Below, in pieces: positions 19,359-20,634 of a stretch of 63,492 bases of DNA. A model generated the notes under the pieces. It did not search any database. It saw only the letters and a list, made by a program, of their open reading frames with translations, and was not told where the DNA came from. Position 1 is the stretch's first letter. The number at the start of each line of letters is the position of its first letter. Origin of the DNA: Candidatus Aenigmatarchaeota archaeon (GTDB lineage Archaea; Aenigmatarchaeota; Aenigmatarchaeia; QMZP01); assembly GCA_043824495.1 (NCBI GenBank), contig JBDRSV010000001.1, positions 1-63,492 of the forward strand. Reading direction: 5' to 3'. A program made the translations under genes and the position numbers.

Positions 19359-20279
19359 ATGGAACTTAAGCTTCCTTTACAGGAAGATCCTTATGTAATA
19401 AACGTACCTATAAAAAGAAACAAGTCTTCTATAGTCATTGATCTTAAAAATCGTCATCTAGGAGCTTTCTTGGGAGCATTTAACAGTGAAGGAAATCTTA
19501 CCGGAAAATCTACGCTAAAAATATCATGTAAAGATATCAATTACCTTAATTCTGTGACAAGCCATATAAAAGAAGTTATGGGAGAATATGGAGCAACAGA
19601 AAAACCACCCACAAAAGAAGATAAAAAAGGAGAGAAAGGGTTCCATAAGTACTATTCCAGTACTGTTTCTAGAACACTAATCAATGGTTATCAAGTGAGA
19701 CCAGGGAAAAAGATTTTGATAAACAATAGGTTGCCAAAAATTATAATAAACACTAGTCTGAATTCTCCCTGGTTAAAAGAATGGCTAAAATTCTATCTAC
19801 AAATGAGATTATCTGGAGACGGTCATGTAAGAAACAGTAAAAATGTTAAGAATGGCAAAAAGTGTTTAACCCGACGGGTAGTTCTTAGTCGAAATATGGC
19901 ACTTGTCAACATTGATGAAAAGTTATTATTAGATATAATGAAAAACTATTCAAATAAGAAAAGCGTGAAAAATTATCCTCAAAGAGTAACCGATGAAATA
20001 GGAATAAGGATGAGAGGGAAAATAAACTACCCCAAAGAGTTCTTTGACTTACAGTATTTTTTGGAAAAACTTTTTGATATAAACAGTCTGATCTATACTG
20101 CTGGTTTGAGATCTATATATTATGACAAAAAGAGAAAGAAATATATAATATCATGTAAATACAGACTGATTATATCGAGAAAAGAAGATATTATAAAATT
20201 CCATGACAAAATAAATTTTGCTTTTTGTGATAAAACTAATAGAAAAAAGCTTATAAAGCTAATTAAGACGTATAAATAA
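19359..20279 (+). CDS. Free-standing two-motif LAGLIDADG-type homing endonuclease-like protein
   Basis: Motif 1 'FLGAFNSEGN', motif 2 'YLQMRLSGDGHV', both with the acidic catalytic position; very Lys/Arg-rich; TTTATAT at 19332-19338 upstream. Confidence 0.7.
   Translation: MELKLPLQEDPYVINVPIKRNKSSIVIDLKNRHLGAFLGAFNSEGNLTGKSTLKISCKDINYLNSVTSHIKEVMGEYGATEKPPTKEDKKGEKGFHKYYSSTVSRTLINGYQVRPGKKILINNRLPKIIINTSLNSPWLKEWLKFYLQMRLSGDGHVRNSKNVKNGKKCLTRRVVLSRNMALVNIDEKLLLDIMKNYSNKKSVKNYPQRVTDEIGIRMRGKINYPKEFFDLQYFLEKLFDINSLIYTAGLRSIYYDKKRKKYIISCKYRLIISRKEDIIKFHDKINFAFCDKTNRKKLIKLIKTYK
20271..20278 (+). promoter_or_regulatory. Candidate TATA box of the tRNA-iMet gene, overlapping the last codons of the LAGLIDADG gene
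   Basis: TATAAATA ends 25 nt upstream of tRNA position 1 (20304). Confidence 0.55.
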
Positions 20280-20310
20280 TAATACAATGCATCTAAGCTG
20301 TTCAGCGGGG

Positions 20311-20343
20311 ACTGTTGATTATTGAGGTAATCATCGGCCGTAA
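20311..20343 (+). other. tRNA intron 1 (33 nt) at position 7/8
   Basis: Central helix GCGG 20305-20308/CCGT 20338-20341; bulges GG^A and AA^T; long intron hairpin CTGTTGATTAT/GTAATCATCGG. Confidence 0.88.
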
Positions 20344-20367
20344 TGGAGCAGCCTGGAGTGCTCGTTG

Positions 20368-20384
20368 AGGCGTATGCCGCGAAA
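20368..20384 (+). other. tRNA intron 2 (17 nt) at position 29/30
   Basis: Central helix TCGT 20362-20365/GCGA 20379-20382; bulges TG^A and AA^G; intron helix GGC/GCC. Confidence 0.9.
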
Positions 20385-20392
20385 GGCTCATA

Positions 20393-20406
20393 GCTTGCTC
20401 TGGGAC
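20393..20406 (+). other. tRNA intron 3 (14 nt) at canonical position 37/38
   Basis: Central helix CTCA 20387-20390/TGGG 20401-20404; bulge TA^G opens into an unpaired loop (relaxed BHB); 3' bulge AC^A. Confidence 0.9.
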
Positions 20407-20413
20407 ACCCAAA

Positions 20414-20432
20414 AGGATAGAAATCCTGGGAG
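20414..20432 (+). other. tRNA intron 4 (19 nt) at position 44/45
   Basis: Central helix CCCA 20408-20411/TGGG 20427-20430; bulges AA^A and AG^G; intron helix GGAT/ATCC; removal restores variable region AGGTC. Confidence 0.88.
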
Positions 20433-20634
20433 GGTCAGTGGTTCAAATCCACTCCCCGCTATCCCCCTCCACCCACCGTTCAGATTTGCTGAATTTCGAT
20501 AACTTATAAATAAATCCTTAATAAAGACGTTTTTGATAGTTCCTATAAATAATTCCATAAAAGTCTTTTTTATTGTTTCTGAATTTTGTGACATGTAACT
20601 TAAATTATTTTTTATGAATAATTAACTGGGCTCA

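Follow-up and report, generated by a model that had tools for sequence, protein, structure and literature searches.

The initiator tRNA-Met gene of a Candidatus Aenigmatarchaeota archaeon is interrupted by four introns, the first of which, at position 7/8, carries a splice motif whose outer helix is formed between the 5′ leader and the D arm of the tRNA itself. The gene lies in the window, by which we mean the whole stretch of 63,492 nucleotides that was analysed. Taken together, the observations described below indicate that this is probably a working initiator tRNA-Met gene with a genuine protein-spliced hBHBh′ intron at 7/8, leader-guided and derived from a LAGLIDADG cassette. What is new here is a module of leader and intron that is linked to an upstream LAGLIDADG-type gene. 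The gene and its parts are as follows.

20304-20461, + strand: intron-bearing initiator tRNA-Met gene of an Aenigmatarchaeota (DPANN) genome
20289..20303, + strand: leader strand of the outer helix, with core 20297-20303 and extension 20289-20295
20304..20310, + strand: exon 1, tRNA nt 1-7; nt 2-5 are the 5′ strand of the central helix, and G6 and G7 lie in the 5′ bulge
20311..20343, + strand: intron 1, position 7/8, 33 nt; its layout is common to 12 other alleles
20344..20367, + strand: exon 2, tRNA nt 8-29; it contributes the exon strand of the outer helix (20346-20352, extended to 20361)
20368..20384, + strand: intron 2, position 29/30, from the spliced cloverleaf, with its BHB pairing read from the sequence
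20385..20392, + strand: exon 3, tRNA nt 30-37, which holds the CAT anticodon, from the spliced cloverleaf
20393..20406, + strand: intron 3, canonical position 37/38, from the spliced cloverleaf
20407..20413, + strand: exon 4, tRNA nt 38-44, from the spliced cloverleaf
20414..20432, + strand: intron 4, position 44/45, from the spliced cloverleaf
20433..20461, + strand: exon 5, the remaining variable loop, T arm, 3′ acceptor strand and discriminator A, with no encoded CCA

Taking out the four inserts leaves 75 nt that are drawn by ARAGORN as a perfect cloverleaf tRNA-Met(CAT). The cloverleaf has A1:U72, three G:C pairs closing the anticodon stem and a CAU anticodon, features by which an archaeal initiator tRNA-Met is recognised. 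Splice motifs are present at all four inserts. The original prediction had placed an intron at 7/8, and this intron is real: the spliced 75-nt cloverleaf is perfect and the 7/8 junction cannot slide, because the bases flanking the two cut sites differ. The unspliced gene (20304-20461) was missed both by ARAGORN and by the Rfam tRNA model, and a second initiator tRNA gene is absent from the assembly (1.01 Mb, 80% complete). The same gene has one to three introns in relatives, compared with four here, and the stated maximum for an archaeal tRNA gene is three (PMC8450103, PMC4390854). Among the approximately 25 tRNA genes of the genome that are recognisable by T arm plus acceptor pairing, no further 7/8 intron was found. 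On the whole genome (G000), ARAGORN reported no more than ~20 tRNA genes, including a few doubtful ones; many of the recognisable tRNA genes are 100-180 nt long, so that non-canonical introns are probably common there.

In the splice motif of intron 1, the central helix pairs G2-G5 (20305-20308) with CCGT (20338-20341) through three Watson-Crick pairs and one G.U pair, just as had been predicted for acceptor bases GCGG (nt 2-5) and the CCGT of the intron. It is bordered by two 3-nt bulges, G6 and G7 plus a20311 on the 5′ side and a20342 and a20343 plus T20344 on the 3′ side (GG/a and aa/T, the slash marking the exon-intron border), and an inner hairpin of 3 + 7 bp abuts it (20312-20314 with 20335-20337, and 20316-20322 with 20327-20333). 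The core of the outer helix is formed by leader nucleotides 20297-20303 and D-arm nucleotides 20346-20352 (7 bp, six Watson-Crick and one G.U). This pairing, together with an A-G mismatch, had also been predicted and is present; the helix is in fact longer, at about 14 bp in its extended form (20289-20303 with 20346-20361), the leader being almost antisense to D-arm nt 10-25. Its 5′ strand lies wholly 5′ of mature nt 1, at -1 to -7 and extendable to -15. A1 faces G9 and is unpaired, and, unless the A.G mismatch stacks, the 3′ bulge widens into a 1x4 internal loop; with this mismatch right after the 3′ bulge, the motif is slightly relaxed. Intron 1 has a 4-bp central helix, opposed 3-nt bulges, flanking helices of at least 2 bp and a canonical tRNA after its removal, as an hBHBh′ motif requires, and its layout matches the definition of that motif in the literature.

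The pairing between leader and D arm is not a product of chance. The leader/exon duplex has an energy of -16.1 kcal/mol, a value reached by 13 of 5000 shuffled leaders and by 0.8% of the 20-mers of the window. Folding of positions 20281-20363 (83 nt) gave -29.6 kcal/mol (z = -3.4; none of 200 shuffles as low) with the 14-bp helix included; in the central region, RNAfold favours a register in which the G run is slipped. When the whole precursor is folded, the structure of lowest energy pairs exon 1 with the 3′ acceptor strand and lacks the motif. Since the whole-precursor fold favours the acceptor stem, the splice-competent fold would have to be kinetic or held by protein.

The arrangement was compared across the phylum by a pattern search of 371 genomes, which found the same D arm in 75 and, with earlier matches, yielded 75 distinct loci. 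Eleven of these have an intron at 7/8, two have one at 4/5 and 62 have none in the first 12 bases. The 7/8 alleles are those of the window, G001, G003, G010, G018, G318, G351 and four of genus g109, spread over three families; two more on metagenome contigs bring the total to 13, and all of them keep the leader:D-arm pairing. Archaeal matches to a combined pattern of intron end and D arm, searched with one genome per species, came only from Aenigmatarchaeota or from archaeal MAGs. The 7/8 intron is patchy within genera g18 and g44: it is present in G018 and G318 but absent from G317, and present in G351 but absent from G349 and G352.

All 11 scored 7/8 alleles have four of four pairs in the central helix, bulges of the form GG/a or GA/a and aa/T, and an inner hairpin that abuts the central helix, the hairpin sequences being unrelated. 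G001 has A2 instead of G2, with T as its intron partner and T at nt 71 (a double change from G-C to A-U), so that pairing is preserved in each of the two helices in which nt 2 takes part. Three to seven contiguous leader pairs adjoin the bulge in every one of the 11 alleles, compared with at most one in 58 of the 62 controls without a 7/8 intron, one of which has five. The mean energy of the leader:D-arm duplex was -14.1 kcal/mol for the intron alleles and -4.5 kcal/mol for the controls (Mann-Whitney p = 1e-7, a value that overstates the difference because the relatives are not independent), and the pairing strength of the 11 alleles ranged over 9-22 kcal/mol, to an invariant D arm. The covariation of leader and D arm that was proposed earlier as a check can therefore not be two-sided, given that the D arm does not vary; the one-sided form is clear and positive. 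The leaders differ in sequence, use two pairing registers and are still complementary, which argues for maintenance over mere inheritance. On this comparison, the predicted outer helix between leader and D arm is conserved in the intron-bearing alleles and restricted to them. The two loci with introns at 4/5, L044 (G055) and L090 (G021), have leader bases -2 and -1 within the central helix, and their outer helix is formed between the leader and tRNA nt 6 onwards, with 11 contiguous bp in L044 and 3 + 9 bp around two mismatches in L090.

The position of the promoter was examined with a TATA-type weight matrix derived from 61 intron-less orthologues. In these, the best match ends mostly 23-25 nt before A1 (mode), a spacing that leaves almost no leader. 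In the ten 7/8-intron relatives the best match ends 33-55 nt before A1, and the matrix scan found a good TATA box at leaderless distance in none of the ten. Two TATA-like boxes precede the gene in the window.

20250..20259, + strand: distal TATA-like box, 44 nt before A1; matrix score 6.1, implied leader about 20-23 nt
20270..20279, + strand: proximal TATA-like box, 25 nt before A1; matrix score 6.0, implied leader almost nil

The distal box has a counterpart in G010 at a position that is conserved relative to the ORF end, and the G010 motif that corresponds to the proximal box is no more than 16 nt away from A1, a spacing too short for a promoter of the tRNA. In the window, the proximal box would start transcription inside or past the helix strand. 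Both boxes lie inside the last codons of an upstream ORF on the same strand, so that read-through could also supply the leader. This promoter ambiguity is the main weak point of the leader mechanism in the genome of the window.

Among the processing enzymes, the RNase P RNA was found in the genome of the window (contig 3, 98-447; 76 bits, full model length). No match to a splicing endonuclease gene was obtained in the window's own 80%-complete assembly; such a gene is present in 44 of 46 genomes of the same family. The 395-aa endonuclease of G010 (L112:211-1398) aligns along its entire length with the epsilon2 enzyme of ARMAN-2 (4FZ2; E = 1e-103), and some genomes of the family also carry a gene for an alpha-type endonuclease of 176-200 aa. 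In a 2018 paper, the epsilon2 type was described from no genomes other than those of Micrarchaeum-type ARMAN and of Mancarchaeum Mia14, which is related to them (PMC5829648). A relaxed motif without outer helix is a known substrate class of broad-specificity endonucleases, and for the epsilon2 type, cleavage of relaxed motifs at numerous positions has been reported (PMC4033280).

In the mechanism that we propose, the first ~80 nt of the precursor would fold into a single long hairpin, in which the outer helix is made by the leader and D-arm nt 10-16 (with extension as far as nt 25), acceptor nt 2-5 pair with the four intron bases preceding its last two as central helix, and the intron hairpin serves as inner helix, the cut sites being placed in the two 3-nt bulges. 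This splice-competent fold would either form during transcription, with ~110 nt still to be synthesised ahead of the 3′ strand, or be stabilised by protein, and the long leader helix would favour a fold of either kind. The splicing endonuclease, which is of the epsilon2 type in relatives, would cut both bulges and a ligase would join nt 7 to nt 8; afterwards exon 1 would pair with the 3′ strand and the D arm would fold, and RNase P would then remove the leader. We infer both that the leader helix is used in cleavage and that the steps run in this order, the splicing-first order following if the outer helix is needed for cleavage. Splicing before acceptor-stem formation and before RNase P trimming is plausible, and guidance of splicing by the leader appears likely.

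Upstream of the tRNA gene, with its 3′ end abutting the leader, lies an ORF that belongs to a family of endonucleases.

19359..20279, + strand: 306-aa ORF of a LAGLIDADG-type endonuclease family, ending 24 nt before tRNA nt 1, with both candidate promoters in its last codons

No Pfam domain matched the window's own 306-aa ORF, and it is assigned to the family because four of its seven homologues carry PF14528. Homologues stand directly upstream of 5′-intron initiator tRNA genes in G010, L115, L116 and L117, and in all five members of the family with readable flanks such a gene follows directly after the ORF. The intron position is 7/8 in the window, G010, L115 and L117 and approximately 10/11 in L116 (ORF end 2355); one endonuclease family thus accompanies introns at different positions. 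Upstream of the G351 allele, a 194-aa ORF encodes a LAGLIDADG endonuclease (PF14528, E = 3e-16), with homologues of 50-61% identity at the same place in G001, G018 and G318 and a broken copy in G003. When both ORF families were sought, a LAGLIDADG-type gene was found directly upstream of nine of the 13 7/8 alleles (the window included), compared with none of the 34 intron-less loci whose upstream sequence spans 700 nt or more. An endonuclease gene is missing upstream of the four g109 alleles, which look like derivatives that lost the ORF. The ORF is positioned upstream of exon 1, not within the intron, and in some relatives its reading frame extends over exon 1 and into the first part of the intron. 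In G003 (L009 / L023), the LAGLIDADG ORF lies in fragments 130-640 nt before the tRNA, and both the 7/8 intron and a leader helix of -22.5 kcal/mol are kept; since the intron is kept with the ORF broken, it outlives the endonuclease. In L021 (2640-3224) and L006, the endonuclease frame crosses exon 1 and most of the mini-intron, and in L021 a relic copy as well, so that tRNA splicing would remove the 3′ end of the endonuclease message.

A possible origin of this arrangement is suggested by G351 and G001, where tRNA nt 1-12 are found just before the start of the ORF, with a TATA box at the normal 24-27 nt. The distance from these stranded bases to tRNA nt 8 is ~613 nt in L021 (G351) and ~609 nt in L007 (G001). 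The stranded stretch of G351 matches, over 21 nt, the leader and 5′ end native to G352, an intron-less member of the same genus. G351 has a tRNA body and a downstream flank typical of its own family, and its upstream flank, ORF and ORF-to-exon-1 region resemble those at 7/8-intron loci of family f1. The states before and after can thus be set side by side: G352 and G349 are intact, and G351 consists of the native promoter and 12 bases, the cassette, exon 1, the mini-intron and the native body. Before the window's ORF, no stranded old 5′ end was found, even with one mismatch allowed. The stranded old 5′ ends of the two relatives point to the arrival of leader, exon 1 and intron as an inserted cassette. 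The endonuclease cassette would have entered an intron-less gene after approximately nt 12, bringing a new exon 1, an antisense-like leader and a mini-intron; the mini-intron would break the DNA sequence across nt 7/8, and RNA splicing would restore the tRNA. We also infer homing. The wider proposal is tentative, and we rate it as a serious possibility that falls somewhat short of an even one: the 5′-proximal mini-introns of DPANN archaea would be made by LAGLIDADG cassettes that insert in the first dozen bases of a tRNA gene and strand the old 5′ end and promoter, each cassette bringing a replacement exon 1 together with a D-arm antisense leader and a short intron, which restores the tRNA by splicing and destroys the DNA target of the enzyme. 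If true, cassette insertion would be an observed route of intron gain, and the leader helix would enforce splicing before 5′ trimming.

A second 7-nt copy of the acceptor 5′ strand was observed 13-30 nt before exon 1 in L007, L021, L030, L042 and L058, and in degenerate form in L024. Such a copy in the leader is found in five of the 11 intron alleles and in one of the 62 controls (L049), and it could be a relic or a decoy. The window is without one, and a decoy is therefore not needed there. For these upstream copies, the integrase/att-site model (Sugahara 2012, PMC3293823) was considered as well and fits less well than an endonuclease cassette, there being no integrase and the copies lying within tens of bases.

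Several other explanations have to be weighed against the leader-guided reading. The intron may be real and the leader helix dispensable, in which case a broad-specificity endonuclease would read the central helix and the intron hairpin as a relaxed motif of HBh′ type, and the complementarity may be a leftover of the cassette origin or a mild helper, with transcription perhaps starting at the proximal promoter. The proximal TATA-like box at the canonical 25 nt would agree with this, as would the four relatives in which only 3 bp adjoin the bulge and the reports that relaxed motifs are substrates of epsilon2 and (alpha-beta)2 enzymes (PMC4033280, PMC5829648). However, all 11 alleles keep 9-22 kcal/mol of pairing, compared with -4.5 in the 62 controls, although their leaders have diverged in sequence and register, and a good TATA box at leaderless distance is missing from all ten relatives; we therefore regard a dispensable helix as unlikely, if still deserving of some weight. 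It is more doubtful that the helix serves mainly another role, blocking early folding of exon 1 and the D arm against RNase P or decay, or acting at the 3′ end of the endonuclease mRNA. A 14-bp helix is far longer than the 2-3 bp that an outer helix needs, the ORF continues through exon 1 into the intron in several relatives, and the full-length minimum-energy fold favours the acceptor stem, all of which would suit such a role, but the start of the helix is in register with the 3′ bulge in every case, to within one base, as expected of an outer helix. Moreover, the two roles are compatible and do not exclude each other.

Still less probable is a long intron with the upstream acceptor copy as true exon 1, which would span ~600 nt including the endonuclease ORF in G351 and G001 and of which the window's intron would be only a part. 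Copies of nt 1-7 or nt 1-12 do occur upstream in five of 11 alleles, where intron-less genes start, and the far copy in G001 has the same derived A2. The upstream copies nevertheless have neither an inner nor an outer helix at the cut site, whereas the proximal copy has both, and the window contains no second copy; with no helices flanking them, the upstream copies were rejected as real first exons. That the locus is a decaying pseudogene with unspliced inserts, as its being missed by standard finders might suggest, is scarcely credible in view of the perfect spliced cloverleaf, the splice motifs at all four inserts, its standing as the sole initiator tRNA gene of the assembly and the conservation of related alleles across three families.

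The leader-guided intron has partial counterparts in known systems. Non-canonical BHB tRNA introns occur at many positions, with 3/4 in the Thermoproteales as the extreme (Sugahara et al. 2008, as cited in PMC4090602). The 3/4 introns are alike in being protein-spliced introns in the first tRNA nucleotides, in a multi-intron gene, with a motif that reaches into the leader; the present case differs in its position 7/8, its DPANN host, the epsilon2 enzyme of relatives, the 14-bp helix of leader and D arm, the four introns and the endonuclease link. Because a 3/4 intron necessarily uses leader bases, the concept of a leader-completed motif is not new, and tRNAscan-SE 2.0 extends candidates by 60-nt flanks to find introns near the ends (PMC8450103). 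In split and permuted tRNAs of Nanoarchaeum, Caldivirga, Thermofilum and Cyanidioschyzon, BHB helices of leader and trailer build the motif (PMC3218864, PMC4033280). There too, a long helix that presents the cut sites is supplied from outside the mature tRNA, whereas here a single transcript is spliced in cis and the partner of the leader is an exon, namely the D arm, rather than a second flank.

LAGLIDADG genes occur in archaeal rRNA BHB introns, and phages have free-standing endonucleases adjoining ORF-less introns, an arrangement called 'collaborative homing'. The loci described here share with these systems a LAGLIDADG gene tied to an intron in a conserved RNA gene, a patchy distribution among close relatives and one locus with chimeric flanks; they differ in that the ORF stands upstream of a duplicated exon 1 and in that the cassette carries its own replacement for exon 1. 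The ARMAN-2 epsilon2 endonuclease (PDB 4FZ2; PMC3239211, PMC12397907) has a full-length homologue in same-family relatives and no match in the window's 80%-complete assembly. Position 7/8 is not named in the open literature that lists intron positions, an earlier listing being possible in the primary catalogues (Sugahara 2008, Marck and Grosjean 2003). In the open literature, we found no report of a long leader:D-arm helix that is specific to intron alleles and combined with a displaced promoter, nor of a LAGLIDADG cassette that replaces exon 1.

In 2018, DPANN genomes were already expected to contain disrupted tRNA genes that had escaped identification (PMC5829648). Genes such as the one described here are invisible to standard tRNA finders, and an essential initiator tRNA would accordingly be counted as absent from DPANN genomes. 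As to the way in which introns reach archaeal tRNA genes, no general entry route emerged from a census of Asgard tRNA introns in 2026 (bioRxiv 10.64898/2026.10.13.758758); the loci reported here capture a possible route of gain. Furthermore, they offer a natural test of whether a 5′ leader can be a required part of a splice signal and thereby fix the order of tRNA processing.
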